From IMG/VR virus record IMGVR_UViG_3300045988_132920: a stretch of DNA of 64,000 bases; one strand, 5' to 3'. This document shows positions 34,959 to 64,000 of this stretch, one piece after another. Under the pieces are notes generated by a model. It searched no databases. It was not told where the DNA came from and was given only the letters and a program-made list of their open reading frames with translations. How positions within the stretch are numbered: position 1 is the stretch's first letter; every line of letters begins with the position of its first letter. The translations under genes and the position numbers were made by a program. Source of the DNA: a virus.

Positions 34959-34963
34959 ATTAA

Positions 34964-37553: not shown

Positions 37554-37596
37554 TTATTACTATGAAATTGTATATTCTAACTCATGGAGGGACAAA

Positions 37597-38548: not shown

Positions 38549-38622
38549 CGGAGTGGAGCAGTAGTAGCTCGCCAGTCTCATAAGCTGGAGGTCGTGGGTG
38601 CAACTCCCACCTCTCGCAACCA
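38549..38622 (+). ncRNA. tRNA-like element with a CAT anticodon loop but imperfect acceptor stem (possible third CAT tRNA or pseudo-tRNA).
   Basis: Anticodon stem ccagt/gctgg with loop ctCATaa, T-arm gtggg-tgcaact-cccac. Acceptor pairing is poor and the 3' end reads ...aacca. A roughly 250-nt ORF-free leader and a promoter lie upstream; a terminator follows. Confidence 0.4.
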
Positions 38623-45383: not shown

Positions 45384-45481
45384 ACTACTGTTATAATGTC
45401 GTATGTAATTACAATGAGGTAGCATAATGCTACCTCTTTCCTTAGGTTGACAGTTTAGATAAATTATGCTAAACTTAAAGT

Positions 45482-45979
45482 ATGTTTGAAGTAAGCAATG
45501 TATTATTTTTAGAAGAATTAACAGCAAGTTTATACATGTATAAAAGCATGGAGACTGTTTATTACAGATGTGACTGTATTCCAATTCATTTTACAGACTT
45601 GTTTAAATCACGTCACTTACTACAGACAAAGCACTATATAAATAGCAGAAGCAGTTACCATGATACAAAAGGGCAAGTTAACGGTACATTCATTCATAAC
45701 AATATGCTGTTCGTACAAATTGAACATGCAGAAAACTTCGATTATGTGGTAAGACGAACAAAATGGTTTGAAAAACCACGCAATATACAAGTTGAGCCGT
45801 TTGAGTGGTGCTACACATACTCCCCAGAAGTTATAGATGGTAATTTTGGTTTTGATGATGAACACGAAATTGGTCAACTTGGTTTAAGATGGGATGCACC
45901 TGAGTTAGCTGTAAGTTACCACTTAGAGTGGGGTGAACCTTTCCCATATGAACGACATTCTATAAATTACTGGAGATAA
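45482..45979 (+). CDS. Hypothetical protein, 165 aa.
   Basis: Promoter ttgaca 45445-45450 upstream. Confidence 0.5.
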   Translation: MFEVSNVLFLEELTASLYMYKSMETVYYRCDCIPIHFTDLFKSRHLLQTKHYINSRSSYHDTKGQVNGTFIHNNMLFVQIEHAENFDYVVRRTKWFEKPRNIQVEPFEWCYTYSPEVIDGNFGFDDEHEIGQLGLRWDAPELAVSYHLEWGEPFPYERHSINYWR

Positions 45980-49440: not shown

Positions 49441-50289
49441 TTATACTACACCATCCTCCTCGGTGTAGTTTTTCTTATGTACCCTATAATATCCACCATA
49501 CCTTGAAACTGTAATGTCTTTGTTTTTCATAAACCCCTTCCTAATGCTATTAATTATTACTTTTGTAGAGGCTAAACTAATATTCATTCTAGCAGAGAAG
49601 TGCCTGTATATTTCATATATCTTTCTACCTTCAAACATATCAATAACATTGTCTAATGTTAGAAAATGACTATGTAAAAACTGCAAATGAGTTTTTGGAA
49701 TATAAGGGTGGTATTGTAAATTACCTTCAGCTATTGGATAACTCTTTAATGTGTAGTAGTCTAACCACGTACGAAGTGTTAGATTCCTCCTGTTATCTTT
49801 ACGAATCTTGCTAGGTACATACTCCTTAAATACTTCTTTTATCTGTTCCACAGTTAATCCAGATATTTTTGAGAGCTGTGGAATAGTTAATCCACATCTA
49901 TGCGTTAATAAAATGTCATATATAGTTTTATACAACTTACTAATAGGAGTGTCGCCTGTCATAATCTCATTAATAGCTTGTTTTATATCATCAACTGTAC
50001 AACCAAACCACTCTGTACCCTGTAGTCTATAAAATCCTTTTTGTTGTAGTACTTTATGTATATCTCTATCCGTTATATTAAAATCATTATCATAACTTGG
50101 TAAAATAAATAGTACATTGAATTGATTACCTTGTGTACACGGGTACCCTTGCAGCTGAGCTTGAATACGTGCTTCAACTGACCCTGTTGTTTGACCAATT
50201 TTAACTAGCCCTTTTCCAGAAGTAGTACTTGTTTGCCATGCTTGATTTCGACTGTGCTCTGTGTCATAGACGTAGATAGTTTGTGACAT
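49441..50289 (-). CDS. T5orf172 / GIY-YIG-like domain protein with a C-terminal DNA-binding region; putative homing-endonuclease-like or regulatory protein.
   Basis: The N-terminus IYVYDTEHSRN...GLVKIGQTTGSVEARIQ...GTEWFGCTVDDI matches the T5orf172 domain signature (YIY...KIGxT...R...EWF). It is a lone minus-strand gene among plus-strand genes, next to direct repeats. Confidence 0.65.
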   Translation of the reverse strand: MSQTIYVYDTEHSRNQAWQTSTTSGKGLVKIGQTTGSVEARIQAQLQGYPCTQGNQFNVLFILPSYDNDFNITDRDIHKVLQQKGFYRLQGTEWFGCTVDDIKQAINEIMTGDTPISKLYKTIYDILLTHRCGLTIPQLSKISGLTVEQIKEVFKEYVPSKIRKDNRRNLTLRTWLDYYTLKSYPIAEGNLQYHPYIPKTHLQFLHSHFLTLDNVIDMFEGRKIYEIYRHFSARMNISLASTKVIINSIRKGFMKNKDITVSRYGGYYRVHKKNYTEEDGVV

Positions 50290-50372
50290 TAATAAAATCT
50301 CCTTTTGTCAGAGAATCTAATAATATGGTAGCTGTATAAGCTGATAAGAGTAGGCTGTTGGTGGTTGCAAAT

Positions 50373-50463
50373 TGGTAAGAACAGAGTTATACAGGTTAAA
50401 AAGGTAGAGTAGATTAATAGTTGTAGAGGTTGGTAAGAACAGAGTTATACAGGTTAAAAAGGT
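50373..50463. repeat. Two perfect 34-bp direct repeats (ttggtaagaacagagttatacaggttaaaaaggt) separated by 23 bp.
   Basis: Copies at 50373-50406 and 50430-50463 read directly. They lie in the upstream region of the minus-strand T5orf172-like gene, in an ORF-free stretch. Confidence 0.85.
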
Positions 50464-50711
50464 GCTAACGGCTGAAACCCGCTGTGTGACTGGGTTATAG
50501 AAAGGTCGAAGTTTTCAGAAAATCCTAAAATTTCTGTGAGCCTCTAAAGACACACCCGACCACACCTGCTTTTCACCCTTCTATCGCCCTTTTTTCACTT
50601 CAAAAAATTGTTACAATAATTTACATAAAACATGCTTGCATGCTATTGACATTTAACTTTTTTAGTGTAATAATAGTATTATAAAGTTAAGCAAACGAAA
50701 GGGAAACGACC

Positions 50712-51185
50712 ATGACAACTTATGAAACACTTTACAACGCAATCGCAAAAGCGAACGAAAAACAAGGACTAAACGCAATGGACATCGCAAGGGGTACGAA
50801 GGCAACAGGCTCAAAAAATGGCATTAAGTACCTAAACATCGGGGGCGTAGTAGTTGCTTACTCTAGCGACAAGCAAGCATTACAAGCTAACAGAAACAGG
50901 GCATGCTCAATCGCTAGACAACAAACGGCAAGCATGAGAAACGGCATGTCTTATGGAGTACCTAACTGTGTAAGCCAAGTATATAGCGACTATTCAGCAT
51001 TTGTAGGAATTGAAAAAATCGGATTTGCAAGCCAAGCATACAAACTAGCCTACATCAGAAAATACTTGCAAGGTGAATTTTACTTCTTAATCGGTCAAGG
51101 CATAAGCAATAACTTCCACGAGATAATAAACGGAGATTACAACATAGTAAACAGTTTAGAAGATAAAAGGGATATATGGGGCTAA
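50712..51185 (+). CDS. Early-region hypothetical protein, 157 aa.
   Basis: Conserved leader aaacgaaagggaaacgaccATG. Promoter ttgaca 50646-50651. Confidence 0.6.
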   Translation: MTTYETLYNAIAKANEKQGLNAMDIARGTKATGSKNGIKYLNIGGVVVAYSSDKQALQANRNRACSIARQQTASMRNGMSYGVPNCVSQVYSDYSAFVGIEKIGFASQAYKLAYIRKYLQGEFYFLIGQGISNNFHEIINGDYNIVNSLEDKRDIWG

Positions 51186-51250
51186 AACCCCATTCCCTAC
51201 TGGGTTTTAACAATAAGTGATACATACAATTAAGTAAAGGAGAATTAAAA

Positions 51251-51616
51251 ATGAAACAAGCACAAGTAAACTACTCAACAATTACAGAAACTATCATTGA
51301 TGATGTAAAGCAAGCTATTATTGACATACAGGCAGGTGAAGATGATTGTTTTATGAAGTTCTTAAACAATGGCATGGTTGGTTATAGCCTTGCATGTTCA
51401 GGTGGTTATTCAATCATTTACGATTGTACAAATGACAGGCTAGTAGTAGCATGGTTGTTAAAGGTTAGAGGGTCAAACATTCATGATTGTATTGACGGGT
51501 CATGGGGTCAAGGTTATTATTTCGATAATAATGGGGGTAGTTACCTTAATGAACGATATGACATTGACAAGGTTGTAGATTTATTTGTCCGTAAAGCACT
51601 AGGGATTAGGGATTAA
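51251..51616 (+). CDS. Early-region hypothetical protein, 121 aa.
   Basis: RBS aaggagaattaaaaATG. Terminator hairpins 51611-51676 downstream. Confidence 0.6.
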   Translation: MKQAQVNYSTITETIIDDVKQAIIDIQAGEDDCFMKFLNNGMVGYSLACSGGYSIIYDCTNDRLVVAWLLKVRGSNIHDCIDGSWGQGYYFDNNGGSYLNERYDIDKVVDLFVRKALGIRD

Positions 51617-51954
51617 GCCTAATCCCTTTAGGGATTTAAGATTAAAGACTGATTGATGTTTCAATCAGTCTTTTAGTATTGATATAAAATATTCAATCTG
51701 GGGCTACTAGCAGGCTATTTAAGACAGGTTACAGTTAATGAATGATAGTTTATACAGTTTGATAGGTTGGAGGGCTTAACGGGGCTTGTAGCTCGTGTAA
51801 GATTGGCATGCTAAAATTGCATACTATTGTAACACAAGAATTTTATTTGTCAAGGGTTTATTAAGTTTTGTAACAAATTAAATACAGGGGTTGACATTTA
51901 AAATTTTTAGTGCTATTATATAAGAGTAGCAGATAAACGAAAGGGAATTAAAAA

Positions 51955-52254
51955 ATGTTAGAACACACTTTGAACATCGGACTTAATGACATGGTAACAC
52001 GCAAGCAAGAAATTGAAACCGACAGAGCTATTGAAATTATCGGTGCAGTGTTAGGGGATTGCACAGTAAAACAAGGTGCAACAGGCTTTTATGCTCACGA
52101 AGACGGCTCAAAAGTAGTTGAAAAATCACTTGAAGTAGTTGTATATGGTGGAAGACAAAAGCAAGTAATCGCTAAAGTTAGGGAGCTAAAAGTTCTTTTA
52201 AATCAAGAGAGCATAGTTTATAATTGCGAGCAGTCAAAAGCAAAATTTATCTAG
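51955..52254 (+). CDS. Early-region hypothetical protein, 99 aa.
   Basis: Cassette promoter (ttgaca 51891-51896, tattat 51914-51919) and leader aaacgaaagggaattaaaaaATG. Confidence 0.6.
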   Translation: MLEHTLNIGLNDMVTRKQEIETDRAIEIIGAVLGDCTVKQGATGFYAHEDGSKVVEKSLEVVVYGGRQKQVIAKVRELKVLLNQESIVYNCEQSKAKFI

Positions 52255-52330
52255 TTTAATGGGGGGATAACTCTCCCCCCCTATAAACTAATCTTAATTA
52301 AGTATGTAGTAAGTAGTAAAGGATAATAAA

Positions 52331-52576
52331 ATGAGTAAAGATGAGAGAATTATTTTAATGTTGTTTGTAGTAGCAGGATTTATTGGCATGTTGTTCTTAC
52401 CTATGTTAGGTATGCTTTATATATGGGACGAGATAGCACGCATGGCAGATAAGGCATGGCAAGTATGCGTTTTATATAAATGTTTATCAATCCTATGGTG
52501 CATGGCTACTTATGCAATTCAGTTTGGCATGGGCAAGATGATATTCAAGCATATTATTTGCAAGCAACCATTTTAA
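52331..52576 (+). CDS. Early-region small membrane protein, 81 aa.
   Basis: RBS aaaggataataaaATG. Two hydrophobic helices. Terminator 52598-52628. Confidence 0.55.
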   Translation: MSKDERIILMLFVVAGFIGMLFLPMLGMLYIWDEIARMADKAWQVCVLYKCLSILWCMATYAIQFGMGKMIFKHIICKQPF

Positions 52577-52597
52577 AATGATTTTAAAATAAGGATT

Positions 52598-52628
52598 TGA
52601 GCCATGACTTTACGGAGTCATGGCTTTT
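52598..52628 (+). terminator. Rho-independent terminator.
   Basis: agccatgact-ttacgg-agtcatggct then tttcg. Confidence 0.65.
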
Positions 52629-52746
52629 CGATTGGTTGTAGTATAGTGTGAGGTGCAAGCCGTGAAACGGCTATAACGCAGTTATAGCTTGTGTTTCAGG
52701 CATATAATAGATATAGGTTAAGTTTTGTAACATACTGAAAATTTTT

Positions 52747-52774
52747 ATTGACAAAATTTGATTTTGTGATACAA
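52747..52774 (+). promoter_or_regulatory. Family-B promoter (TTGACA-N16-tgaTACAATagtat), plus strand.
   Basis: ttgaca 52747-52752, tacaat 52769-52774. Further plus-strand members at 55726, 56695, 57383, 59085, 60967 and 61008. Confidence 0.6.
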
Positions 52775-52879
52775 TAGTATACACTATTATGGATTGTAAC
52801 AATATGTTAATATACTATTGACATATAAGTTTATTAGTGATATAATCATCATGTGGTACATAAATGAAAGGAAAGAATT

Positions 52880-53299
52880 ATGGATTTTAAACAAGGTATA
52901 TGCCCGTTATGTGGTAGTGAAAATTTGGATTACGGGGTATTACAACCTGATGACGATTGTATTTATTACCCGTGTGAATGTGGGGATTGTGGAGCTACTT
53001 TTAAGGAATATTACAGCCTTGATTTTTCAGGTCAAGAAAATATATCTGCTGGAGATACTGGGAATGTAGTTGAAAGATACACACTTGAAAGACAGGTTAA
53101 AGAGGGATTTTTCGCTGATTTATCATTATATAAAAAGATTGCTACCTTTGAAACTTACGAGGAAGCATGGGAAGCATACGAAAAGCAAACAGTAACAGGG
53201 GATTATGCTATCGTTAGAGCTAACTATAAAGTGGAAAATGATGAACTCACAGAGATAGTACAGACAAGGAAAGCTGAAACACTTGTAAACCATAAATAA
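52880..53299 (+). CDS. Early-region zinc-ribbon protein, 139 aa.
   Basis: CPLCGSEN...CECGDCGA four-Cys motif at the N-terminus. Tandem promoters at 52747 and 52817. Terminator 53301-53337. Confidence 0.6.
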   Translation: MDFKQGICPLCGSENLDYGVLQPDDDCIYYPCECGDCGATFKEYYSLDFSGQENISAGDTGNVVERYTLERQVKEGFFADLSLYKKIATFETYEEAWEAYEKQTVTGDYAIVRANYKVENDELTEIVQTRKAETLVNHK

Positions 53300-53300
53300 A

Positions 53301-53337
53301 GGGATAAGCATGCCAGTAGTTGGCATGCTTATTTTTA
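53301..53337. terminator. Rho-independent terminator, hairpin symmetric with flanking A/T runs.
   Basis: gggataagcatgcca-gtagt-tggcatgcttatttttaac. Confidence 0.7.
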
Positions 53338-53345
53338 ACATGCGT

Positions 53346-53378
53346 ATACTATTGTAACACAAAAAACTCATTTGTCAA
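53346..53378 (-). promoter_or_regulatory. Family-B promoter on the minus strand, antisense and directly downstream of terminator 53301-53337.
   Basis: The minus strand reads ttgacaaatgagttttttgtgttacaatagtat. The same arrangement recurs at 51823, 54136, 54866, 55787, 58088 and 59134. Confidence 0.5.
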
Positions 53379-53414
53379 GTGTTTATTAAGAAGTGTAACA
53401 AATTAAATAAAGGG

Positions 53415-53443
53415 GTTGACATATAAGTTTATTAGTTGTATAA
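53415..53443 (+). promoter_or_regulatory. Family-A cassette promoter (gggTTGACAt-N17-TATAAT with TGn extended -10).
   Basis: ttgaca 53415-53420, tataat 53438-53443. Equivalent copies at 51891, 52817, 54213, 54939, 55859, 56774, 57446, 58165, 59207, 61719, 63097 and 63949. Confidence 0.65.
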
Positions 53444-53474
53444 TATTCATGTAAATAAACGAAAGGAATTAAAC

Positions 53475-54095
53475 ATGAAAGTAAATGACTTTATTATGGC
53501 AGTACTAGACCATTCAAAAACAGACCCAAGTATATTAAACAAGGAATTGCAGTTATATAATTCAGCCGAACGCAAATCCTATGCAACAGACTCAATTCCA
53601 ACTTTTGTTGACCTATCAGATGACAAGTATCTTGATATAGTGTTTAACAATCAAGGGAACATTGCAGATATAAGACAGGAACTGGAGGGGAAAGCCTTAA
53701 ATCCTGTGCAAGTATTAAATGGGTGGAGTGGCTTATACACTATTGTCAAGAATGCACTTGCTAAAATTGAAACACCTAATGAAACAGAGATGTGCTTAAT
53801 TCAACAATACTACTATAATAAGCTCATTGAGAATTTACAAGGTATAAAAGCCATTGACAAATCAGTTGAACTTGTTGAGGATGAGGGGCTTGAGTTTATG
53901 CGACACATTGATGTTGAAATTAACTTCAACAACGGTGGTGGGCATGCAGGAATACGAGCTTTTATTACAATAACAAAGGATAACAAGAACGAAATTCAAG
54001 CCTATGTGCAAGATGAGTTTTACGGAACTATTCCACAAGAGGATAATTATTTTGAAGATATAAACATTAACAACCTTATCGCTTATCTACAATAA
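53475..54095 (+). CDS. Early-region hypothetical protein, about 206 aa.
   Basis: Start reassigned to ATG 53475 behind leader aaacgaaaggaattaaacATG. Cassette promoter ttgaca 53415-53420, tataat 53438-53443. Terminator 54097-54134. Confidence 0.6.
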   Translation: MKVNDFIMAVLDHSKTDPSILNKELQLYNSAERKSYATDSIPTFVDLSDDKYLDIVFNNQGNIADIRQELEGKALNPVQVLNGWSGLYTIVKNALAKIETPNETEMCLIQQYYYNKLIENLQGIKAIDKSVELVEDEGLEFMRHIDVEINFNNGGGHAGIRAFITITKDNKNEIQAYVQDEFYGTIPQEDNYFEDININNLIAYLQ

Positions 54096-54096
54096 A

Positions 54097-54134
54097 GGGA
54101 ACAGGCATGCACACTAGCATGCCTGTTCTTTTGT
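54097..54134 (+). terminator. Rho-independent terminator.
   Basis: gggaacaggcatgc-acact-agcatgcctgttcttttg. Confidence 0.7.
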
Positions 54135-54272
54135 TTAATGAAATACTATTGTACCACAAAAAACTCATTTGTCAAGTGTTTGTTAAGAAATGTAAATTTA
54201 TAAAACAATGTATTGACATTTAAGTTTATTAGTGTTATTATATAAGAGTAGATAAACGAAAGGAACACAGAT

Positions 54273-54461
54273 ATGGCAACAAATTTTGAAATGTTTTTAG
54301 ACACAGTAAACGGATTAAAGTACTCACAAGGCTTTTATAGCAGACTCGCAAATCAAATTGCTGAAATGTCAGAAGAAGACTTAAACAGAGCTAAAGAAGA
54401 AATCAATGCACTACCTCAATTCAATGACCAACTTGATGTAATATTGTGGTTAGAACAATAG
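54273..54461 (+). CDS. Early-region small protein, 62 aa.
   Basis: Cassette promoter (ttgaca 54213-54218) and leader gataaacgaaaggaacacagatATG. Confidence 0.55.
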   Translation: MATNFEMFLDTVNGLKYSQGFYSRLANQIAEMSEEDLNRAKEEINALPQFNDQLDVILWLEQ

Positions 54462-54472
54462 GAGAGTTACAG

Positions 54473-54805
54473 ATGTTAAACGACTTAGACTTAATGGTGA
54501 AACTATTTGACAATAAGTTAAATGAATATCATACAGACAGCCTTGTGAAATTCCGCAAGGCAGTTGAAGACAAAGTTCTTGATACAGAAACAAAGCAAGC
54601 CTTAATGCAGTTAAGCACAGAAGACCTTGCAAATCTCATGCGTATTGCAGAAAATGCACACATTGACGAGATGAACGGCAGAGAAACGCAATGGGATACA
54701 GTAGCAGAGCATGCCAAGTCATCAATAGCACAGTTTGCACTTAACAACCTATCGGTTGAAGAATTGCAAGAATGGACTGATATATGTAATGCAATGGCAT
54801 GCTAA
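54473..54805 (+). CDS. Early-region hypothetical protein, about 110 aa.
   Basis: Start reassigned to ATG 54473 after RBS taggagag. Terminator 54834-54860. Confidence 0.55.
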   Translation: MLNDLDLMVKLFDNKLNEYHTDSLVKFRKAVEDKVLDTETKQALMQLSTEDLANLMRIAENAHIDEMNGRETQWDTVAEHAKSSIAQFALNNLSVEELQEWTDICNAMAC

Positions 54806-55001
54806 AACAGAGTTAATTTATACGGTGATTACTAGCACACATTTGTGTGCTTTTTCTTTAGTAGTGAAATACTATTGTAACATAAAAAACTCATTTGTCA
54901 AGTGTTTGTTAAGCAATGTAAATTTATTAAACATACTATTGACATTAAAGTTTTTTAGTTGTATAATGATTATGTGATAGATAAACGAAAGGGAACAAGA
55001 C

Positions 55002-55622
55002 ATGGAAAGACCAGTAAAGATTGAAATTAACAAGGACGAAGAAAAAAGGATTTACATAAATGATGACATCTTCATTGATATATCAAACAATGGGGGCAGA
55101 GAGTATGACATCTATGTATTTGACCAAATGAAATGTGTAGCAACACAGAGCATGGATATAATAGGCATAAGGGAAGACCAATACACCTATGACAAACGAA
55201 CAGTAAAAGAACTCAACAGAGAGCATATACACAGGGCAGAAGTAACAAACATATTAAGCATACTTGATAAGCACACTAAATCCTTACAGGATAAGTTTGC
55301 TAAACTATGTGCAACTAAAAGACCTTTAACTGCTTCTGAAATAATGTTTACTGAAAAAGAAGTTCAAGAACTATTTAAAGGTGAGGTTACATACATTGAG
55401 CTATGCCCTAACACTGATGACAGTATAAGTGTTTTTGTAGTTTTCGAGGGTAAGGTAGGTGTATTTTATGAAATGAATAAAATACACCTACCTTACAAGG
55501 GTTTTCAACATAAACGAACTATTGAGTACTACACAGTTTATAATTCCTTTAGTGATGAAACTACCCTTGAACTAAACGAAAGAACATTGCGAGCTATTGA
55601 CAGAGATGAGTGCCGACTGTAA
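55002..55622 (+). CDS. Early-region hypothetical protein, 206 aa.
   Basis: Cassette promoter (ttgaca 54939-54944, tataat 54962-54967) and leader aaacgaaagggaacaagacATG. Hairpin 55610-55633 at the stop. Confidence 0.6.
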   Translation: MERPVKIEINKDEEKRIYINDDIFIDISNNGGREYDIYVFDQMKCVATQSMDIIGIREDQYTYDKRTVKELNREHIHRAEVTNILSILDKHTKSLQDKFAKLCATKRPLTASEIMFTEKEVQELFKGEVTYIELCPNTDDSISVFVVFEGKVGVFYEMNKIHLPYKGFQHKRTIEYYTVYNSFSDETTLELNERTLRAIDRDECRL

Positions 55623-55919
55623 CCAGTCGGCACAACCCCACTTCACCCCTATAACCCCCATTTTACAAGGGTTAGAGGGGTATTTTAGGTAGGTATTAAG
55701 TTTTGTAACAATCTGAAAATTTTTATTGACAAATAACTTTTTTGTGGTACAATAGTATTCACCATGCCCGTGATTGAGCATGAAAATATACTATTGTAAC
55801 ACAGGTTAGATTGATTGTCAAGTACATGTTAAGAATTGTAACAATTAAATACATGGGGTTGACATAAGAAATCTTTAGTTGTATAATAATTATGTGATAC
55901 AAAACGAAAGGGAATACAA

Positions 55920-56114
55920 ATGAGAAAAGAAGATTTACAGGAACTCCTTAACAAATGTGGTGAGATTGAGCTTGATTTAACCTTATCACAGGAAGATGAT
56001 GAAATTATTTTAACAATAGGGTCAGAAAATTCATCTGGAGAGGAATACATCATAAATAACACAGATGACATTAAAAACATTATTGAAGATTACATAGCAG
56101 ATTTATATGAATAA
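55920..56114 (+). CDS. Early-region small acidic protein, 64 aa.
   Basis: Cassette promoter (ttgaca 55859-55864, tataat 55882-55887) and leader aaaacgaaagggaatacaaATG. Confidence 0.55.
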   Translation: MRKEDLQELLNKCGEIELDLTLSQEDDEIILTIGSENSSGEEYIINNTDDIKNIIEDYIADLYE

Positions 56115-56132
56115 ACGAAAGGGAACATGAAC

Positions 56133-56684
56133 ATGAAACAACACACAATTTGGAAAGATACTTCAATGTGGACTGTAAAGAACATTGACGAGGCAAAAGC
56201 AAGTGCTAGAGCAGAACTAATAGACAACGGATTTGAAAATCCAACAGACGAGCAAATAAGCGAATATATCGAACAGGATAACGAATTTGAATATCAAGCA
56301 ACATACAACAAGTTCAAACAAGTACAAACTAACGGCAAAATTGTTCTTGTTGCAGATAATGCAACATGGAGAGGTAGGAGAGTAGGCTTAAAATATTTAG
56401 GACACAATTTAGGTAATATTTTACAGTCATTCTTCAACGGCTACCCTGCTTTTACTTATGATAGGTTTAACATCAGAGGTGAGGAATGCCACCATGACCA
56501 ACGATTTTGCAGCGATAGCAGACCTAATCAGTATTTATTCAGAGAGCTTAAGGAAGAATACAGTGATATGGACGATTATAGGCTATGTGAGTTGCTTGTG
56601 CAAGATAATGAGATTAACAAACGCAATTTAGCAAAATATACAAAATCATTAAGACCATATTTAAAGGAAGTATGGGGGATTTAA
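56133..56684 (+). CDS. Early-region hypothetical protein, about 183 aa.
   Basis: Leader aaacgaaagggaacatgaacATG. The second ATG is chosen for its RBS spacing. Confidence 0.55.
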   Translation: MKQHTIWKDTSMWTVKNIDEAKASARAELIDNGFENPTDEQISEYIEQDNEFEYQATYNKFKQVQTNGKIVLVADNATWRGRRVGLKYLGHNLGNILQSFFNGYPAFTYDRFNIRGEECHHDQRFCSDSRPNQYLFRELKEEYSDMDDYRLCELLVQDNEINKRNLAKYTKSLRPYLKEVWGI

Positions 56685-56901
56685 TCCCTCATACTTGACA
56701 AATAATTATTTTATGATACAATAGTATGCTTGTCATGTAATTGTAAAGATATGTTACAACAATAAATAAGTATTTGACATTTTAATTTGTTAGTGCTATC
56801 ATATACATGTATTAAGGATAAAGAAAAGCACTTGACAAATAATTACTTTTCACCTATACTTAATCATGTGATACATAAGACAAAAGAAAGGGAACAACAT
56901 C

Positions 56902-57309
56902 ATGGCAATCAAGGTAAAAGACGAAGTAAGAAAAGGCATAAGCTACACTAAAAGGGAAATTGTAGACCTAGAAGAACTTATTGCTGAATGTGATGAAGCA
57001 ATAGGCTACATGTCAGAAACTACTTTTACAAGACACCGTAACGCACACAGAATTAACAAGGTAATTGAGCAGAAGAAGTCAGCACAACAAGAGCTATCAC
57101 TTCAAAAGTTAAGCCTTAAAAACTATGCTGAATTTTACGGTCTTAAAAAGTCAGATGTTGAAGCAGTTGCACCAGCGACAGATGAGCAACTGGAAAAGGA
57201 CTGGCAAGCAGACTTAAGGGAAGCAAATAAACCATATAACCCTAACGACCTAATAAAACTTATGGAACAGTTTGACAGGGAACACCCTCAACAATTTGAA
57301 ATAGTATAA
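56902..57309 (+). CDS. Early-region hypothetical protein, 135 aa.
   Basis: Three promoters upstream (56695, 56774, 56833). RBS aaagaaagggaacaacatcATG. Confidence 0.6.
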   Translation: MAIKVKDEVRKGISYTKREIVDLEELIAECDEAIGYMSETTFTRHRNAHRINKVIEQKKSAQQELSLQKLSLKNYAEFYGLKKSDVEAVAPATDEQLEKDWQADLREANKPYNPNDLIKLMEQFDREHPQQFEIV

Positions 57310-57501
57310 CTCTTGTTCGGAAACATAAATTAGGCACAGGTTCACAGAGCTTGTGCCTATTGCCTTTTAGATGTAAGTATTGACAAATAATTATTTTATG
57401 GTACAATAGTATCTTTTGCATGCCTGTATAATATCGAGGGTTGACAAACAACTTTTTTAGTGTTATAATATACATGTGATACCAAACGAAAGGGAACATA
57501 T

Positions 57502-57693
57502 ATGACTGTAAGAATACTAAACACATGCCCGATTTGTGGCTGTTCAAAATTCAAGTATCAAGATGATGGATTTATGTGCCTTGATTGTGGTGAGTTCTCA
57601 TACATAGAGGACATGACCTCAACAGCTTTAGAAGTGCATGAGTTATCTGAACATGATTTGATTGACAGGTCATTAGTAAAGGGGGAACAATAA
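57502..57693 (+). CDS. Early-region zinc-ribbon mini-protein, 63 aa.
   Basis: CPICGCSKF...CLDCGEF. Leader aaacgaaagggaacatatATG. Confidence 0.55.
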   Translation: MTVRILNTCPICGCSKFKYQDDGFMCLDCGEFSYIEDMTSTALEVHELSEHDLIDRSLVKGEQ

Positions 57694-58073
57694 TGAGTAT
57701 AAAAGAACAATTACAAATAACGATTGTACAAAAGATGATTGTACGAAGTCCTTTTGCAAAAGGTAACTGTAAGGAATACATACTTGATTTAACATACAAT
57801 AATAAGACAATGCGTTATAACTTTTATGATAGTGTGTATAATTATGAGAACAACCAAGAGCTTAATAAGTTTGAAACACTTTATGCAATCCTTACAGACC
57901 GTAGAGCATACAGATATTCAAGAAGTGTAGAGGACTTTGCAAAAGAGTTTGGTTACACAGATGAAGAAAAGGCAAGGAAAGTATATAGTGCTTGTAAGAA
58001 GATAGCACTTGACCTTGAAAGACTATTCACAGAGGAAGAACTAGAACAGCTTGAGCAAGAAGTAGAAGTGTAG
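57693..58073 (+). CDS. Early-region hypothetical protein, 126 aa.
   Basis: TAATG overlap with the upstream gene. Terminator 58069-58090. Confidence 0.55.
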   Translation: MSIKEQLQITIVQKMIVRSPFAKGNCKEYILDLTYNNKTMRYNFYDSVYNYENNQELNKFETLYAILTDRRAYRYSRSVEDFAKEFGYTDEEKARKVYSACKKIALDLERLFTEEELEQLEQEVEV

Positions 58074-58090
58074 GGAATTCCCTACACTTT
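58069..58090 (+). terminator. Rho-independent terminator.
   Basis: Palindrome tgtagggaattccctaca followed by tttt. Confidence 0.6.
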
Positions 58091-58229
58091 TGAAACATAC
58101 TATTGTAACACAAAAAACTCATTTGTCAAGAGTATGTTAAGAAATATTAAATGTTGAAACAAGGGGTTGACAGGTAAGTTTATTAGTGCTATAATAAGGG
58201 AGTGATAGATAACGAAAGGGAATAAACAA

Positions 58230-58895
58230 ATGAAAAACTTAAACAACATGACAACAGAGGAAATTCAAGACACTATTTGGGAAGTACTTGAAAGTAAATC
58301 AGGTGAGGAAGTCTTAAGAGCTTTTACTAACTGGCATGGAACTCAACTTCTTACAGGGGAATTCCTAGAAGCATTGTCAGATGACGGAATGACAGATGAG
58401 GAATACGGATATTTTGATGATGAAGAAGATGAAGAAATCGAAGAAGACGATGATGACAGTGATGAGGACACTAAAGAATTCCTTGATACTTTAACTGATG
58501 ATGAGCTTGAAGAAGTACATTCAAAAGTAGTTAAGTTATATGAAACACTTGCAAAGTTAGCTACTGATAGTTCAGCAAAGGAAACACAACACGGGCAAGT
58601 AGACCATGTAAGATGTGCTTTTAAAGCTCTTGTTAGCTTGTACAATGGTGAATACACAGATATGCTTAGTGAAAACCACTACATGGACATAAGACTAAAC
58701 ATAGCACCTATACATGATGTGCTAATTACATTAACTGCACTACCAAATAAAAGACCTTATATAAATGTTAATCAATGGGTGGACTACAAAGACGGAACTG
58801 CTATATACTTAGGTGAAGTTGAAAGGCAATGCAAGTTAAGACTTGGTAAAGAATTCCCTGATAAAATAGGTTATTGGGGAATAGGGCAGAACTAA
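58230..58895 (+). CDS. Early-region protein with an extended acidic D/E tract, 221 aa.
   Basis: Cassette promoter plus leader gataacgaaagggaataaacaaATG. Tract DEEYGYFDDEEDEEIEEDDDDSDEDTKEF. Confidence 0.6.
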   Translation: MKNLNNMTTEEIQDTIWEVLESKSGEEVLRAFTNWHGTQLLTGEFLEALSDDGMTDEEYGYFDDEEDEEIEEDDDDSDEDTKEFLDTLTDDELEEVHSKVVKLYETLAKLATDSSAKETQHGQVDHVRCAFKALVSLYNGEYTDMLSENHYMDIRLNIAPIHDVLITLTALPNKRPYINVNQWVDYKDGTAIYLGEVERQCKLRLGKEFPDKIGYWGIGQN

Positions 58896-59266
58896 ATTCC
58901 CTATCGTATCACAAAAGAAGCTACTCTTGCAGATGATTGCAAGGGTAGCTTTAGTATGTATGGTAGCCTACACCCAACCACTCGCACGCCGCTAAATGGC
59001 TATAACCCTTGCTACACAATGGTTTGAGATAGATTGATTGAGGGTGTTAAGTTTTGTGAAATTCTGAAAATTTTTACTTGACATTTTTGTGATTTATGAT
59101 ACAATAGTATACCTCACGCAGTAAAATACTATTGTATCACATGACACACATTTTGTCAACCCTTACATTGTAAATTTTTATTAACTTTATTAAATCGTAG
59201 GGGTTGACATTAAACTTTTTTAGTGCTATAATAAGGGAGTGATAGATAACGAAAGGGAACAAACAA

Positions 59267-59785
59267 ATGACAAGAAAAACTTTAGATGTAGCATTAGACT
59301 TTGTAAATCAAGAACAGGATTATGGTAAAGGGTCATCAGTACACTACAATGGGCATTTATTTTACAGTTACGCAACAGTAGTTGCACAGATTGTAAAGGG
59401 TAAAGACAATGGAACATATTGTCTATTGAGCAATAACAATATGAGCATGATTACTTCAAAACATTTGGGAAACCTTGTTTCAGCTTGTATTAGAACAAAC
59501 ACACCTATTATCCGTGTAGCTTGCGACTGGTACGACCGTTATGAAGTTACACCAACAGAGTATGCTAATAGGCAAATAAAAGACCTTAATTACTATGTAG
59601 AGAATAAGGACATTTTAACTAAAAAGCCTAACAGAACAGAGTTTATCAGTATTTATGTAAATACACAGGAACTAATTGAAACATTAGAACTTGATATTAA
59701 AATTCCTCAAGAAATAACAGACTTATATAACAACTTGTTTAATGTAGAGTTTGTGAAATCACTAAGAAAACGCAAGGTAGCCTAG
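59267..59785 (+). CDS. Early-region hypothetical protein, 172 aa.
   Basis: Cassette promoter and leader gataacgaaagggaacaaacaaATG. Confidence 0.6.
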   Translation: MTRKTLDVALDFVNQEQDYGKGSSVHYNGHLFYSYATVVAQIVKGKDNGTYCLLSNNNMSMITSKHLGNLVSACIRTNTPIIRVACDWYDRYEVTPTEYANRQIKDLNYYVENKDILTKKPNRTEFISIYVNTQELIETLELDIKIPQEITDLYNNLFNVEFVKSLRKRKVA

Positions 59786-59841
59786 AAATAGGCTACTATG
59801 CCAACGAGTAGTAAATACACATAATTGTAAAGGATAATAAA

Positions 59842-60702
59842 ATGAAGGTATTAGTAAAACAAGAATTAACTAACAGAGATTTTCAAAAGGAACTATTTGA
59901 AAAGAACGGCATAATAACACTTGCACATAACACAGATAACTTAGAATTATTTGTGCCAACATCTTGGGTAAGTGGTGAAACATTAACACACTTATCAATG
60001 AGTGGTAGAGCCTTTTCAGAGATTAAGTACTCAAAAGATGATAATAAAATTCAAGTAGACAGGCATAACCACTCATGCTCAACACCACATGATTTTGAGT
60101 TTGAACTTAATAAGATTACAACATGGATTGGTCAGACAATTCTACCAGTATATAAAGATTTATCAATAGGTAAGTTGTACTCGCTATATGTAATGTACAC
60201 TATTAACAGAGCTTTGTTTGATAACACTAGAACACAGGATGAGGGTTTGATTGAACTAGCACATAAGATTGTACATGCCAGTAACTCAATTTCAGTTGAA
60301 AAAGACATTAACCAAAACGCAGATACAGCAGAACTTGAAAAAGAAGTAGAACAGCACTTCAATAAGATTGCAGAATGTATTTGCTACACCTTAAGAGAAG
60401 ATAGAATTCTAACTGGTAAAGGTAATCCTTTTGTAAACTTCTTCTCAAGATTGTTTCAATCAGATTTCTTTGAAAATTATTCAGAATACACTTACTTATG
60501 TAAGAAACAAGAAATGATTAAAGACATGATTAAGTTTGATTTGATGTTTAGACCTAAGGCAGAAACTACACAGGAAATTATAGACACCTATGCAGACACT
60601 ATTAGGAATACATCATTTAATAAGTTTGAATTTGATTATGTTAAGTTATGCCTAGCAGAGTATATACATAGTACTCATTACATAATGGAGTATAACTTAT
60701 AA
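59842..60702 (+). CDS. Early-region hypothetical protein, 286 aa.
   Basis: RBS aaaggataataaaATG. Terminator 60750-60777. Confidence 0.6.
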   Translation: MKVLVKQELTNRDFQKELFEKNGIITLAHNTDNLELFVPTSWVSGETLTHLSMSGRAFSEIKYSKDDNKIQVDRHNHSCSTPHDFEFELNKITTWIGQTILPVYKDLSIGKLYSLYVMYTINRALFDNTRTQDEGLIELAHKIVHASNSISVEKDINQNADTAELEKEVEQHFNKIAECICYTLREDRILTGKGNPFVNFFSRLFQSDFFENYSEYTYLCKKQEMIKDMIKFDLMFRPKAETTQEIIDTYADTIRNTSFNKFEFDYVKLCLAEYIHSTHYIMEYNL

Positions 60703-60749
60703 AGATTTAATATCTAGTGTTTTGTTCGTGGTTTGTTCATAACAACCTA

Positions 60750-60777
60750 ACCCTCTTAATGAGGGTTTTTCTTTTGT
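60750..60777 (+). terminator. Rho-independent terminator.
   Basis: aaccctc-ttaat-gagggtt then tttcttttg. Confidence 0.65.
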
Positions 60778-61772
60778 AAGAACACAGGAAGCCCCAGTTG
60801 ATTATCCTAAAATCATGATGTGTTGACACATTTAGATTTACATAAAATCGGGTAGGGCTACAATGCAGTAATAGCTTGAAAATTGATTTTTGATGTTTAG
60901 AAAATCCCTAATAGGACTTTTTCAAAATGGGTATGGTAGAAAATTGCTTCAAGTACAGGGTTGACAAAATGATTGTTATGTGGTACAATAGTATGCTACA
61001 CAAGGGATTGACATAATTTGGCTCGTGTGGTACAATAGTATATTTTGCATGGGCATGCCTGTAAACCCTCTCGTAGTCGGTATGCGACAGATTGGGTGAA
61101 TGAGCATTTTGAGCCTACTAGGACACCATTAAAAGCCATTATTGGTCATCAGATGTGTTGTGTGTTGATTGAGCATGTCGACCTCGTCAGAGCCGTTGCA
61201 ATGGCTTTAGGTTTGATAAACAGGGAGAATAGTTGAGCAGAGAGAGTTTGAGAGTGCCGACCCGACCGAAACTACTACAACTACTGGGCGATAGCGAGTG
61301 AGGTTGAGCAGAACGGTGCGTGGGGCAGACGGGGCAAGGCTGTGTTTTAGACACACTCACATTCCCCAAAATTCCCAAACATTTCCCGACCCAAACGCAC
61401 CTCACACCCTCAAACAAAACTTCAAACCCTGTTTCAACTTCCCACAAATTATATTATCTAATGAAGCGGAAACGCAGACACCCCAACACATACCACCGAC
61501 ACAGACGGCTGAAACCCAGACAAAATAGGCGTTCATGGCACTTTCGCACTGTAAACAGTGTTTTATATGCCTAAAAAGCCCTCGTAGTCTACACGACAGC
61601 CTATTCCTAACATCTATTTCATACACTCTCACATATACAAGCCTAAAAACTGGCTATACTGTGTTCTTTTGTAATCCTTTAATACACATACTATACAGAC
61701 CCTCTCATGTAGTAGGGTTGACAAATTACTTTTTTAGTGTTATCATATAAGAGTAAACGAAAGAGGTAACAA

Positions 61773-61970
61773 ATGTATGGTAAAGACATTAACGGTATTG
61801 ACATCAAACTAAATGACATAGTACAAAGTATCAAAAAGAATACTGACTGGAATGACCAGTTAAACAATGACCTTATGACACAAGTTGTAGACAACGAATT
61901 TCAAATTGACAATGACTACATCTATGAAGTAATAGGGAACACTATTGACAATCCCAAACTTACATACTAA
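61773..61970 (+). CDS. Early-region small protein, 65 aa.
   Basis: Cassette promoter (gggttgacaaattacttttttagtgttatcat) and leader gtaaacgaaagaggtaacaaATG. Confidence 0.5.
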   Translation: MYGKDINGIDIKLNDIVQSIKKNTDWNDQLNNDLMTQVVDNEFQIDNDYIYEVIGNTIDNPKLTY

Positions 61971-61985
61971 CAAGGAAGCAAGCAA

Positions 61986-62570
61986 ATGACAGAATTAACA
62001 TATACAGAAGAAAACACATGTACTACAACACTTACAACAGACATCTTAAATGAAAGATACTGTGTTGTTCCTAGTATTGAACAGGAATTACTTGACAAGT
62101 ACAAAGAAAACACTAAAAGAAGAATAGTTGTAAATACTAAAATTAGTACAGATAAGTTTACAATAACAATAAACCCTAGTATAAACAGGCTGTTTCTTAC
62201 TTTTACTCAAAATGATGATGTAGTTATTCTTCAATTATTCATCAAGACAAATGTTGAGCTTGAGTGTGTTGAAGGTCTTATTTTCTCATTCCTTGAGAAC
62301 TGTTTAGACTACTTACACAACCTTGCTAAAAGTCAAACATTATACAGGGCTATATGGAATGCAGACTGTGTTTCAAAATACCCTAATGTTAAAGGACAAG
62401 TTGAAATAATAATTAAAGACCTGTTTACAGGTGATACAGAGTATGGTGTTGATTATTTTGACTTTATTAGCGAAGAAAAAGGTGAGGAATTCTGTAATGA
62501 ATTCAACTCACTTAACATTACTATTATGGAAGACTTTAGAGAATTTTGTAATAAGAGAGGTATTATATAA
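61986..62570 (+). CDS. Early-region hypothetical protein, 194 aa.
   Basis: RBS caaggaagcaagcaaATG. Confidence 0.55.
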   Translation: MTELTYTEENTCTTTLTTDILNERYCVVPSIEQELLDKYKENTKRRIVVNTKISTDKFTITINPSINRLFLTFTQNDDVVILQLFIKTNVELECVEGLIFSFLENCLDYLHNLAKSQTLYRAIWNADCVSKYPNVKGQVEIIIKDLFTGDTEYGVDYFDFISEEKGEEFCNEFNSLNITIMEDFREFCNKRGII

Positions 62571-62791
62571 TGGCACTTACACAAGCATGTATAGATGAAA
62601 TAAAGTTAAATCCTAAAGAATACAGAGCTATATTTGACAAGCATAATAATATGCAAGACAAATACAATAGATTTACTGGAGAGGATTTACTTAATGCACA
62701 AAGGCTTAGTAATAACTGGGAAAAAGAAGTTGAAACCTATGAAGAATACTGGGCTAGAATATATGCTTCTGATATGCTTATTATGAGGTAG
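62570..62791 (+). CDS. Early-region small protein, 73 aa.
   Basis: TAATG overlap coupling. Confidence 0.5.
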   Translation: MALTQACIDEIKLNPKEYRAIFDKHNNMQDKYNRFTGEDLLNAQRLSNNWEKEVETYEEYWARIYASDMLIMR

Positions 62792-62794
62792 TAA

Positions 62795-63025
62795 ATGAAC
62801 GATTATAGATTGAACTTAATACATAAGACAGATAATAAAACATGTGCTAGGACGTTATGTCAAGTAGCATGGTTTAATGCAGTATCAGCTTTTGACACAC
62901 TTAGAACAGCTTATTTACAAGGGTTATTCCCTAGTACTGTTGTAGGAGTTGTATTAGTACACAATAGAACTAACAAGGTTATTAAAGATTGTTCTAAGCT
63001 ACACAATAAACTTATTGACTATTAA
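62795..63025 (+). CDS. Early-region small protein, 76 aa.
   Basis: RBS atgaggtagtaaATG. Confidence 0.45.
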   Translation: MNDYRLNLIHKTDNKTCARTLCQVAWFNAVSAFDTLRTAYLQGLFPSTVVGVVLVHNRTNKVIKDCSKLHNKLIDY

Positions 63026-63160
63026 ACATTCATTCATATATTATTTCTAAAAACTTTCATTCTTATGTCAATCCTCACCTCCTAATATCAAAAGGGTTGA
63101 CATTTCTTTTTGTTAGTGTTATAATAACTATGTAAGCAAACAACGAAAGAGGTAACAATA

Positions 63161-63523
63161 ATGGCTAAGTTAGGTACATTCATAAACGAAGAAACATCTC
63201 GTGAAACACTAATACTTGGAAAGCTAGTTATTAGTGGCTTTAGAGGTGACGGAATAACTTACCCTAAAGGGAAGTACATCTATGAATTCATTAAGTATGA
63301 TAACTGTGTTGTGAACTTCAAAGGGGATAACTTCATCAATTACAGTATTATGTGCTTTATACCTTTAAACTCAAAAACCATTAGAATTGCCGTAGTCAAT
63401 ACTAATCAACCTAATGTAGTAGTAATCAGATTTACTCAAAGGTATGAAACTGTTGCAGATAAGAATAGTATTGTTAAATGGTTTACAGACAGACATATAC
63501 CAGTCTATAAAGTAGAGAACTAG
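63161..63523 (+). CDS. Early-region hypothetical protein, 120 aa.
   Basis: Cassette promoter (gggttgacatttctttttgttagtgttataat) and leader acaacgaaagaggtaacaataATG. Confidence 0.55.
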   Translation: MAKLGTFINEETSRETLILGKLVISGFRGDGITYPKGKYIYEFIKYDNCVVNFKGDNFINYSIMCFIPLNSKTIRIAVVNTNQPNVVVIRFTQRYETVADKNSIVKWFTDRHIPVYKVEN

Positions 63524-63536
63524 AAAGGGTAAACTT

Positions 63537-63932
63537 ATGATACTAATTAAAAGACTTGAATTTACACAAGACAATCAAGGAAGACCTGTAACAGTTGAAA
63601 CTACTGTGTTTCACCTTAGTGTACTTGTAAATGATACAGATAACATGCACACTCATCTAATTGAGGAAAATGTGTTTGAAAACAATGTGTTTAGAGAGCT
63701 TGTGCAAGAGTATATGGAAAACGAAACAGATGAAGTACTATTCTGTACTAGCACTGATGAGGGTGCAGAATTTGAAGTAACAGGAGAAGTATGTCTTGAA
63801 TTCCTTAATAGAATGAAAGCTAAAGGCTACAACCTAGACAATTTGTGGAAAGAGGACGGAGTAACATTTTTGAATAACAAGTTCTTTAATGTTAGCACTC
63901 AACATTATGCCGTTGAAGTTGTTGATTACTAA
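63537..63932 (+). CDS. Early-region hypothetical acidic protein, 131 aa.
   Basis: RBS gaaagggtaaacttATG. Another cassette promoter begins at 63949. Confidence 0.55.
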   Translation: MILIKRLEFTQDNQGRPVTVETTVFHLSVLVNDTDNMHTHLIEENVFENNVFRELVQEYMENETDEVLFCTSTDEGAEFEVTGEVCLEFLNRMKAKGYNLDNLWKEDGVTFLNNKFFNVSTQHYAVEVVDY

Positions 63933-64000
63933 TAAGTAGGGTTGACAAATAACTTTTTTAGTGTTATACTATTCATGTAAGCAAACAACGAAAGAGGTAA

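Follow-up and report, generated by a model that had tools for sequence, protein, structure and literature searches.

Gene array and transcription units

The DNA analysed here, the window, is a stretch of 64,000 nucleotides from a virus (IMG/VR record IMGVR_UViG_3300045988_132920) with a base composition of about 33% GC, and the subject of this work is the array of small genes at its right end, from 50640 to 64000, in which a promoter followed by a short leader with a ribosome-binding site (RBS), here called the class A cassette, is reiterated along the array and is joined in part of it by a second type of promoter, class B. The array holds 23 open reading frames (ORFs) of 62-286 amino acids, all on the plus strand, and 14-15 class A promoters of the TTGACA-17-TATAAT type. 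The ORFs form the following units:

50712-51616, plus strand: unit 1, ORF157 (50712-51185) and ORF121 (51251-51616)
51955-52576, plus strand: unit 2, ORF99 (51955-52254, predicted fold like that of S-adenosylmethionine (SAM) lyase) and ORF81 (52331-52576, hydrophobic)
52880-53299, plus strand: unit 3, ORF139, with a CxxC...CxCxxC Zn-ribbon-like motif at the N-terminus
53475-54095, plus strand: unit 4, ORF206a
54273-54805, plus strand: unit 5, ORF62 (54273-54461) and ORF110 (54473-54805)
55002-55622, plus strand: unit 6, ORF206b
55920-56684, plus strand: unit 7, ORF64 (55920-56114) and ORF183 (56133-56684)
56902-57309, plus strand: unit 8, ORF135
57502-58073, plus strand: unit 9, ORF63 (57502-57693, Zn-ribbon) and ORF126 (57693-58073, phrog_4273, E 4.5e-13)
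58230-58895, plus strand: unit 10, ORF221, with the acidic tract DDEEDEEIEEDDDDSDED
59267-60702, plus strand: unit 11, ORF172 (59267-59785) and ORF286 (59842-60702)
61042-61717, plus strand: non-coding stretch downstream of tandem class B promoters
61773-63025, plus strand: unit 12, ORF65, ORF194, ORF73 and ORF76, without terminator
63161-63932, plus strand: unit 13, ORF120 and ORF131, without terminator

An earlier reading of the region from its letters alone (the sequence-only reading) had described more than 20 small ORFs, each with its own cassette and each followed by a rho-independent hairpin. The number of ORFs agrees with that description, but the promoters are fewer than the ORFs and many units contain two to four cistrons; clear hairpins, with folding energies (dG) of -9.5 to -24.8, follow 13 of the 23 ORFs, all of them within 51.6-60.8 kb, several lack a T-run, and none is found in the window past 61.7 kb. 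The hairpins lie upstream of the promoters and do not overlap them:

51644-51673, plus strand: terminator hairpin after ORF121, dG -16.7
52252-52290, plus strand: hairpin after ORF99, dG -18.7, weak T-run
52599-52626, plus strand: terminator hairpin after ORF81, dG -17.5
53303-53333, no strand assigned: hairpin after ORF139, contains GCATGC, terminator-like score on the minus strand
54095-54132, no strand assigned: hairpin after ORF206a, dG -24.8, contains GCATGC, terminator-like score on the minus strand
54834-54851, plus strand: terminator after ORF110, 7 T in its tail
55645-55681, plus strand: hairpin after ORF206b, dG -17.2
56670-56694, plus strand: hairpin at the end of ORF183, without T-run
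57331-57359, plus strand: terminator after ORF135
58063-58092, no strand assigned: hairpin at the end of ORF126
58917-58952, plus strand: hairpin after ORF221, dG -22.1
59772-59801, plus strand: hairpin at the end of ORF172, without T-run
60749-60767, no strand assigned: terminator after ORF286, terminator-like score on both strands

The cassette array does occupy 50640-64000, as the sequence-only reading had it, but it runs on for at least 9.5 kb past 64000, where contig L061 supplies 9.5 kb of continuation with 10 further promoter-leader copies and about 25 further small ORFs; in the window and L061 together the array exceeds 23 kb and comprises more than 40 co-oriented small genes. It falls into two parts, a left half (50.6-61 kb) with terminator hairpins between the units and a right half (61.7 to at least 73.5 kb in window-equivalent positions) in which the promoters are reiterated without terminators. 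The 660-nt non-coding stretch listed above (61042-61717; GC 41%, G-rich in its first half and C/A-rich in its second) shows 87-97% conservation among strains; no Rfam family matches it, and 61040-61720 folds no better than shuffled sequences (z -0.36). The segment at 50290-50640 likewise gives no support for a structured RNA (z +1.65).

The class A cassette and its leader

The class A promoter has the form GGG-TTGACA, a 17-nt spacer ending TTAGTGn, and TATAAT, and eight of the 15 copies located by a promoter scan of the window match 12 of 12 hexamer positions. The 10-mer AACGAAAGRG of the leader occurs 11 times in the window, always within 50694-63996, against 0.13 occurrences expected from shuffling, and a repeat search recovers families of 63-140 nt with 5-11 copies each, at 60-91% identity to the reference copy of the family. 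These motif counts, promoter scans and repeat families bear out the reiterated plus-strand cassette proposed by the sequence-only reading, although a range of 60-91% identity does not amount to the near-identity that it ascribed to the copies. Its counter-case, in which the likeness would be confined to the -35 and -10 hexamers, is not what the alignment of the copies gives: in a consensus built from 22 copies (14 of the window and eight of the L061 continuation) the sequence reads GggTTGACAaataAcTTTtTTAGTGtTATAaTat..atGTaA, a variable gap, aAACGAAAG, and then GGAAC or AGGTAAC, with conservation beyond the hexamers that takes in the spacer, the region of the start site and AAACGAAAG(G/A)G, whereas 11 control promoters from 19-47 kb have only GGTTGACA and ATGaTATAAT in common. 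The gap from the -10 to AACGAAAG varies between copies from about 8 to 22 nt, and AAACGAAAG(GG/AGGT) stands 7-10 nt ahead of the ATG in 22 of the 22 copies examined. Spacer positions without function are equally conserved among the class A copies, and this speaks for common descent of the cassette or for its gene conversion. The copies are listed here together with related elements; L066, L159 and L160 are contigs from other samples, and the junctions named are taken up below.

50646-50711, plus strand: class A promoter TTGACA-17-AATAAT and leader AAACGAAAGGGAA, before ORF157
51891-51954, plus strand: class A cassette before ORF99
52818-52879, plus strand: class A cassette with leader variant AAATGAAAGGAA, before ORF139
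53386-53398, plus strand: example of the TTAAGnnnTGTAA(CAA) block
53416-53474, plus strand: class A cassette before ORF206a; L159 insertion junction
54213-54272, plus strand: class A cassette before ORF62/ORF110; L159 deletion junction
54939-55001, plus strand: class A cassette before ORF206b
55859-55919, plus strand: class A cassette before ORF64/ORF183
56111-56132, plus strand: copy of the leader/RBS block that lacks a promoter (ATAAACGAAAGGGAAC), ahead of the internal cistron ORF183
56774-56802, plus strand: extra class A-like promoter TTGACA-17-TATCAT, in tandem with 56832
56832-56901, plus strand: class A-like promoter (TATACT) and leader AAAGAAAGGGAAC, before ORF135; L159 deletion junction
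57441-57501, plus strand: class A cassette before ORF63/ORF126
58167-58229, plus strand: class A cassette before ORF221
59204-59266, plus strand: class A cassette before ORF172/ORF286; 91% identity to the copy at 58162-58236
61718-61772, plus strand: class A cassette with leader subfamily 2 (AACGAAAGAGGTAAC), before the four-cistron unit ORF65-ORF76; flanks the extra unit of L160
63097-63160, plus strand: class A cassette, subfamily 2, before ORF120/ORF131
63942-64000, plus strand: class A cassette, subfamily 2, truncated by the window end; crossover of the L066 unit deletion

The TTAAGnnnTGTAA(CAA) block is always plus-oriented and upstream of class A, its other copies being at 51861, 52718, 54183, 54909, 55696, 55829 and 59047, and among the unique non-coding spacers no homology is found besides a TTAAGTTTTGTAACA..CTGAAAATTTTTA block.

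Contigs from other samples differ from the window by the gain, loss or replacement of whole units, and the junctions fall at the cassettes. A two-gene unit (79 and 105 amino acids) is missing from L066, and base-by-base alignment places the crossover inside AACGAAAGAGGTAA, in the leader; the junctions of the other two contigs are known at the resolution of BLAST breakpoints. L159, which is about 95% identical, carries four extra genes (2.3 kb) directly past the 53416 cassette and lacks 54280-56877 (three units), the breakpoints falling at the leaders of the cassettes at 54213 and 56832, while L160 has an additional 141-amino-acid unit bracketed by two copies of the 61714-61742 cassette. The cassettes are, as these junctions indicate, substrates for homologous recombination. 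The region is read here as a hyperplastic accessory-gene array of a large gut phage, resembling both the PeSL regions and the host-takeover modules discussed below, and we consider it likely that this array is driven by the cassettes and shuffled through them. Each unit, of 1-4 small ORFan genes, would be driven by one copy of the cassette, that is, by a near-consensus host sigma-A promoter and a short leader, so that the host RNA polymerase and ribosomes would express the genes strongly once the DNA is in the cell; the hairpin terminators of the left half would insulate the units, and recombination between cassette copies would add genes to strains or remove them.

The conservation of the leader must be considered separately from that of the promoter, because the sequence-only reading took it for an RNA-level control element. 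With initiation assumed about 7 nt past the -10, the leaders are 20-35 nt long and purine-rich, their minimum free energies are 0 to -3.8 kcal/mol with a mean z of +0.8, which makes them less structured than shuffled sequences, and no Rfam family is matched at gathering score or even at E-values up to 5. The conserved block pairs with the 3' tail of 16S rRNA at a uniform -8.9 to -10.1 kcal/mol, compared with a mean of -7.9 for other genes of the window, where the tail used is the canonical Firmicutes sequence. The copy without promoter ahead of ORF183 (start 56133) indicates that the block belongs to the RBS rather than to the promoter.

In phage T4, RegB and RegA control early mRNAs through their Shine-Dalgarno (SD) regions, and here too a class of genes with a common RBS sequence offers a potential common handle. 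The leader could by this precedent be a dedicated RNA operator, in which a RegA-like repressor or RegB-like endoribonuclease recognises AAACGAAAGG and shuts off the whole class. It is consistent with such an operator that AACGAAAGRG is specific to the class within this genome, all 11 occurrences being in the array and none of about 40 other window genes using the leader block, and that the block also precedes an internal cistron. The leaders are nevertheless predicted to be unstructured, the distance from the -10 to the motif varies, and the equal conservation of neutral spacer positions lets common descent explain the likeness between copies. L275, a more distant contig, retains the SD core (GAAAAGAGGTA) but not the AAC prefix, and L503 has likewise lost the prefix and kept the core. 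No RegA- or RegB-like protein was found, in a weak test that consisted of Pfam searches on 30 ORFs.

The distribution of the motif outside this phage bears on the same question. An exact scan of IMG/VR for TTGACA-N14-15-TGnTATAAT-N8-22-AACGAAAGRG gives 94 matches in 92 loci with GC contents of 29-57%, many of which have the fuller leader CAGAAAGAAACGAAAGRGG in common, and a scan of bacterial genomes for the promoter with AACGAAAGRG gives 113 loci, mostly in metagenome-assembled genomes (MAGs) of Clostridia (the main groups being Oscillospiraceae, Acutalibacteraceae, Ruminococcus and Eubacteriales), many of them ahead of ordinary genes. Because the motif also precedes ordinary Clostridia genes and occurs in numerous unrelated contigs of phages, there is no support for a dedicated RNA control element, and we regard the operator as distinctly improbable; in this respect the array differs from the T4 case, since an extended SD and common descent, in a motif widespread in Clostridia and their phages, explain the common sequence. 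With unstructured leaders, uniform SD pairing, an AAC prefix that more distant contigs do not keep and a widespread motif, the RNA-level control proposed by the sequence-only reading is not sustained. We conclude that the leader is best understood, from its sequence, as an efficient, unstructured, extended-Shine-Dalgarno leader with the core AAACGAAAG(GG/AGGT), and that the likeness between its copies would reflect the common descent of the cassette together with selection for expression.

The class B promoter

The upstream block that the sequence-only reading had included in the cassette is present, but it is a separate consensus promoter, often in the opposite orientation. This class B promoter has the form TTGACAAAT-N-TGnTACAATAGTAT with a spacer of 16-17 nt, and it gives 12 exact pattern matches against 0.00 expected; there are 14 copies in all, seven on each strand, and a pattern search finds none elsewhere in the window or in the terminator-less right half of the array.

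51821-51853, minus strand: class B (TTGACAAAT..TGTTACAATAGTAT), inverted, at 38 nt from the -35 of class A; L159 has a deletion of the -35 of this copy
52748-52780, plus strand: class B, forward, 70 nt upstream of class A 52818
53346-53378, minus strand: class B, inverted, aimed at terminator 53303-53333
54143-54175, minus strand: class B, inverted, aimed at terminator 54095-54132
54869-54901, minus strand: class B, inverted, aimed at terminator 54834-54851
55726-55758, plus strand: class B, forward, convergent with 55788-55821, predicted starts about 26 nt apart
55788-55821, minus strand: class B, inverted, convergent partner of 55726
56695-56727, plus strand: class B, forward, immediately past ORF183
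57380-57412, plus strand: class B, forward, 61 nt upstream of class A 57441
58097-58129, minus strand: class B, inverted, aimed at hairpin 58063-58092
59078-59110, plus strand: class B, forward, convergent with 59126-59159, elements 15 nt apart
59126-59159, minus strand: class B, inverted, partner of 59078
60961-60994, plus strand: class B, forward, first of a tandem pair before the 660-nt non-coding stretch
61008-61041, plus strand: class B, forward, second of the tandem pair

The inverted copies have a strict geometry, in that the class B -35 is exactly 38 nt from the forward class A -35 in six of seven, and in four of seven (53378, 54175, 54901 and 58129) the predicted transcript enters the terminator hairpin of the preceding unit within 10-20 nt. 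The seven forward copies stand in tandem with class A or converge with an inverted copy (55726/55821 and 59078/59159), two of them forming the tandem pair before the non-coding stretch. Between strains the copies are 94-100% conserved, with the exception of one copy in L159. Class B-like copies recur, in a like arrangement, in three more distant contigs, of which L275 and L277 were reached through ORF99 homologues at 57-59% identity and L503 through a scan of metagenomes for an inverted class B next to a class A, a scan that otherwise returned mostly single matches, many from unrelated environments. L275 has an inverted GGGGTTGACA-16-TATAATAGTATCT in four of four intergenic regions, L277 has three copies and L503 has 11 (eight inverted and three forward). 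Across lineages the -35, the spacing, the TG, the -10 and the adjoining AGTAT are kept and the spacer sequences differ, as seen in copies gathered with a pattern that itself required the hexamers and AGTAT, and the retention of promoter positions while spacers diverge is the signature expected of a working promoter. Scans of IMG/VR with class B patterns give mostly single matches at chance level.

Whether class B elements are promoters at all can be questioned, since they might instead be operators or other protein-binding sites, or recombination or inversion sites that resemble promoters. Their occurrence in either orientation, including convergent pairs that cannot both be productively occupied, would fit such sites, as would the lack of a downstream gene, a predicted RNA without conserved sequence, and a GCATGC(C) palindrome that often lies just downstream. 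We nonetheless hold this to be unlikely, because four lineages keep only the positions that define a promoter (TTGACA, 16-17 nt, TG, TAYAAT and AGTAT) while the spacers differ, and because the number of mapped strain breakpoints inside class B elements is zero.

If class B elements are promoters, then the RNAs predicted from them have no common sequence, and as antisense partners of the class A leaders they give duplex energies no better than shuffles. Structured RNA downstream of the inverted copies was also considered and rejected, as the negative z-scores there probably reflect the known terminator hairpins contained in these segments. We infer that the function of class B would lie in polymerase binding or in transcription itself rather than in the RNA made. 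The device envisaged combines a perfect sigma-A promoter and a conserved discriminator, AGTAT(C), and stands in either orientation upstream of the productive promoters, its inverted copies being expected to fire head-on into the preceding unit's terminator. It could insulate units by collision or as a roadblock, destabilise the 3' hairpins of early mRNAs by antisense transcription, or hold host RNA polymerase at a loading site or escape-limited trap. An RNA polymerase loading site or a head-on insulator/antisense device appears most likely, and a source of specific small RNAs less so. That class B is a dedicated regulatory device of this phage group, in which polymerase binding controls the timing or the isolation of early units, is put forward tentatively, as a possibility on which we would not rely. 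One copy lost its -35 in L159 through a 15-nt deletion, by which single copies are dispensable, a point that weighs against the reading of the region as a whole. A comparison can be made with the back-to-back early/late promoter switch of phage phi29 (A2b/A2c versus A3), which likewise has divergent sigma-A promoters a few tens of base pairs apart with a conserved block between them, but here the inverted promoter has no gene to express and recurs at many units. Class B, an orientation-independent promoter, is a conserved additional element for which no known scheme accounts.

Two further observations concern the surroundings of class B. The GCATGC(C) palindrome occurs 20 times in the window against 8.9 expected, with 12 of the 20 inside the array (50638-61058), and in many cases it stands 5-25 nt downstream of a class B -10, either by itself or within both arms of a terminator hairpin, also in related contigs (L274, L275, L277 and L503). 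The non-coding segment at 51636-51820, downstream of the inverted copy at 51853, has few differences from L159 over about 180 nt, and the adjoining ORF121 is 93% identical.

Phage, gene products and known systems

The same phage was recovered in metagenome assemblies, and all array-bearing contigs come from metagenomes, those that are named being gut metagenomes (samples with the phage include ERR13985326, ERR13961219, PRJNA217052 and PRJEB26961); one contig of 239 kb bears a near-identical variant of ORF99. A megablast search of 50,697 phage records gives no close match to the window, searches of IMG/VR with ORF286 and ORF221 give no relatives, a homologue search with ORF126 finds only near-identical variants, and no T4 hallmark family is present among the large ORFs scanned in the window. 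The phage is a large phage of the human gut, and its host is probably a member of the Clostridia, because the same promoter and RBS string is found in the 113 genome loci that are mostly Clostridia MAGs.

Outside the array, the window contains 25 tRNA genes at 30.1-38.6 kb (30159-38618), which cover most amino acids, have small ORFs between them and have promoters of their own (TTGACA-17-aTGaTATAAT). Between the tRNA genes and the gene array comes an RtcB RNA ligase gene (46881-48065), a gene with a T5orf172/MUG113 domain (49441-50289, minus strand) forms the left border of the gene array, and near this border is a 34-nt exact direct repeat (50372-50405 and 50430-50463). Some genes of the window look leaderless, with the start codon 6 nt past the -10 of a consensus promoter and no SD (24934-24971, 34572-34609, 19332-19369 and about 45447-45484); the start codons are ATG, except for a GTG at 19367. 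A perfect inverted repeat of 108 nt (13605-13712 and 18576-18683) falls within the N-terminal portions of a convergent pair of genes, each about 900 amino acids long, that have GDSL-lipase and DUF4886 C-terminal domains, and the flanks of the repeat are only about 75% complementary; these could be invertible or gene-converted tail-fibre-like genes.

The products of the array are unannotated, as had been noted from the sequence: among 20 ORFs scanned none exceeds the Pfam cut-off and one matches a PHROG family (ORF126, phrog_4273, function unassigned, E 4.5e-13), and the Zn-ribbon ORFs (52880 and 57502), the hydrophobic ORF (52331) and the ORF with an acidic tract (58230) are all present. The proposal that the products are candidates for anti-defence functions finds some support in ORF99, whose predicted fold, like that of phage SAM lyases, would fit such a role, and no other ORF offers a functional hint. 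ORF99 scores 18.9 bits (E 0.0015) against the Pfam family S-AdoMet_lyase (PF23780), below the cut-off of 28, and nothing significant is found for it in the PDB by sequence; for its AlphaFold2 model (pLDDT 79) the best PDB match is the phage SAM lyase 6ZNB (E 1.7e-5, TMq 0.64), followed by SAM-AMP lyases, and homologues at 57-82% identity occur in related gut contigs. It is plausible from this model that ORF99 is a candidate anti-restriction or anti-CRISPR enzyme.

Two known systems resemble the array as a whole. PeSLs, the repeated promoter/stem-loop/SD motifs of T4-type phages, occur ahead of ORFans in hyperplastic regions and bring about modular shuffling (PMC2839356, PMC4122927). The PeSL type is further characterised by encapsidated mini-circles and by a T4-type myovirus as its carrier. 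Both PeSLs (Arbiol et al. 2010; Comeau et al. 2014) and the present cassettes are repeated intergenic motifs that reach from a stop codon to the next start codon, with a promoter of host consensus and early type, an SD and, in the left half of the array possibly as in PeSLs, a terminator stem-loop; both are concentrated in hyperplastic regions ahead of ORFans, and in both the recombination of copies leads to insertions, deletions and replacements between close relatives. The present motif differs from PeSLs in having Gram-positive promoters (sigma-A, -16 TRTG) in a probable Clostridia phage, a stem-loop that lies upstream of the promoter pair and does not overlap the promoter, a right half without stem-loops, and an extra conserved second promoter that is often inverted. 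SPO1's host-takeover module consists of small genes with strong promoters and RBSs in short operons, according to the summary of work from 1998 in PMC6873191; as far as that summary describes it, the module and the array alike span some 12 kb or more, with small co-oriented genes in short operons of a large Firmicutes phage and with promoters and RBSs of the highly expressed type, but in the array the promoters are reiterated copies of one cassette. The SPO1 type of module is defined further by a place in the terminal redundancy of the genome and by early expression of products that shut off host processes. No homology to SPO1 gp37-gp60 is detected by Pfam and named PHROG families on the scanned ORFs or by DNA comparison with the phage collection. 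The host-takeover architecture suggested by the sequence-only reading accordingly stands as a likeness to SPO1-type modules, to the extent that the summary covers them, and to T4-type PeSL regions (PMC6873191, PMC2839356).

The array is probably expressed early, as judged by analogy from the strength of its promoters, its resemblance to the SPO1 module and the lack of such promoters in the large-ORF region at 1-19 kb. The units might otherwise be moron-like or continuously expressed accessory genes, active in a prophage or throughout infection, and not an early takeover set: like morons they have their own promoter and often their own terminator, their genes are dispensable between strains, and sigma-A promoters are not early per se. 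The absence of an integrase or repressor among the scanned ORFs speaks against this, as do a large genome, 25 tRNAs and RtcB, which are typical of virulent phages, and the location of more than 40 genes in one co-oriented block, which is closer to the early regions of SPO1 and T4 than to scattered morons, so that we give this alternative little credence.

The reading of the region as a cassette-driven, cassette-shuffled accessory-gene array with a takeover-like role has several points against it. The early timing is deduced from promoter type, and sigma-A-like promoters of another flavour at 19-47 kb imply that promoter type by itself cannot separate temporal classes; a functional hint exists for one array ORF only, ORF99, whose ferredoxin-like fold also matches CutA and PII-like proteins (1e-4 to 1e-3); and the 16S tail used for the leaders is an assumption about the phage's host. 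In addition, the variants are metagenome assemblies, in which errors at repeats could mimic the gain and loss of units, a concern countered by the fact that four different events are seen in contigs from four different samples or runs.

Arrays of this kind are not confined to the present phage. Three unrelated IMG/VR contigs, L300 and L318 (GC 0.48-0.49) and L315 (GC 0.42), have 17-25 consensus sigma-A promoters per 10-12 kb with purine-rich leaders, and several copies have, just upstream of the -35, a stretch complementary to the spacer, such that a hairpin could span the -35. These dense arrays indicate that the design seems common in phages with Gram-positive-type promoters, and suggest that it may be common in gut and rumen phages. 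The PeSL concept is in this way extended from T4-type phages of Gram-negatives to a large uncultured gut phage, with the shuffling backed by natural variants. The array also yields, as a defined set for anti-defence and takeover screening, more than 40 small genes that are independently promoted and of which one is predicted to be SAM-lyase-like, and in class B it presents a concrete and cheaply testable puzzle about the use of host RNA polymerase by phages.

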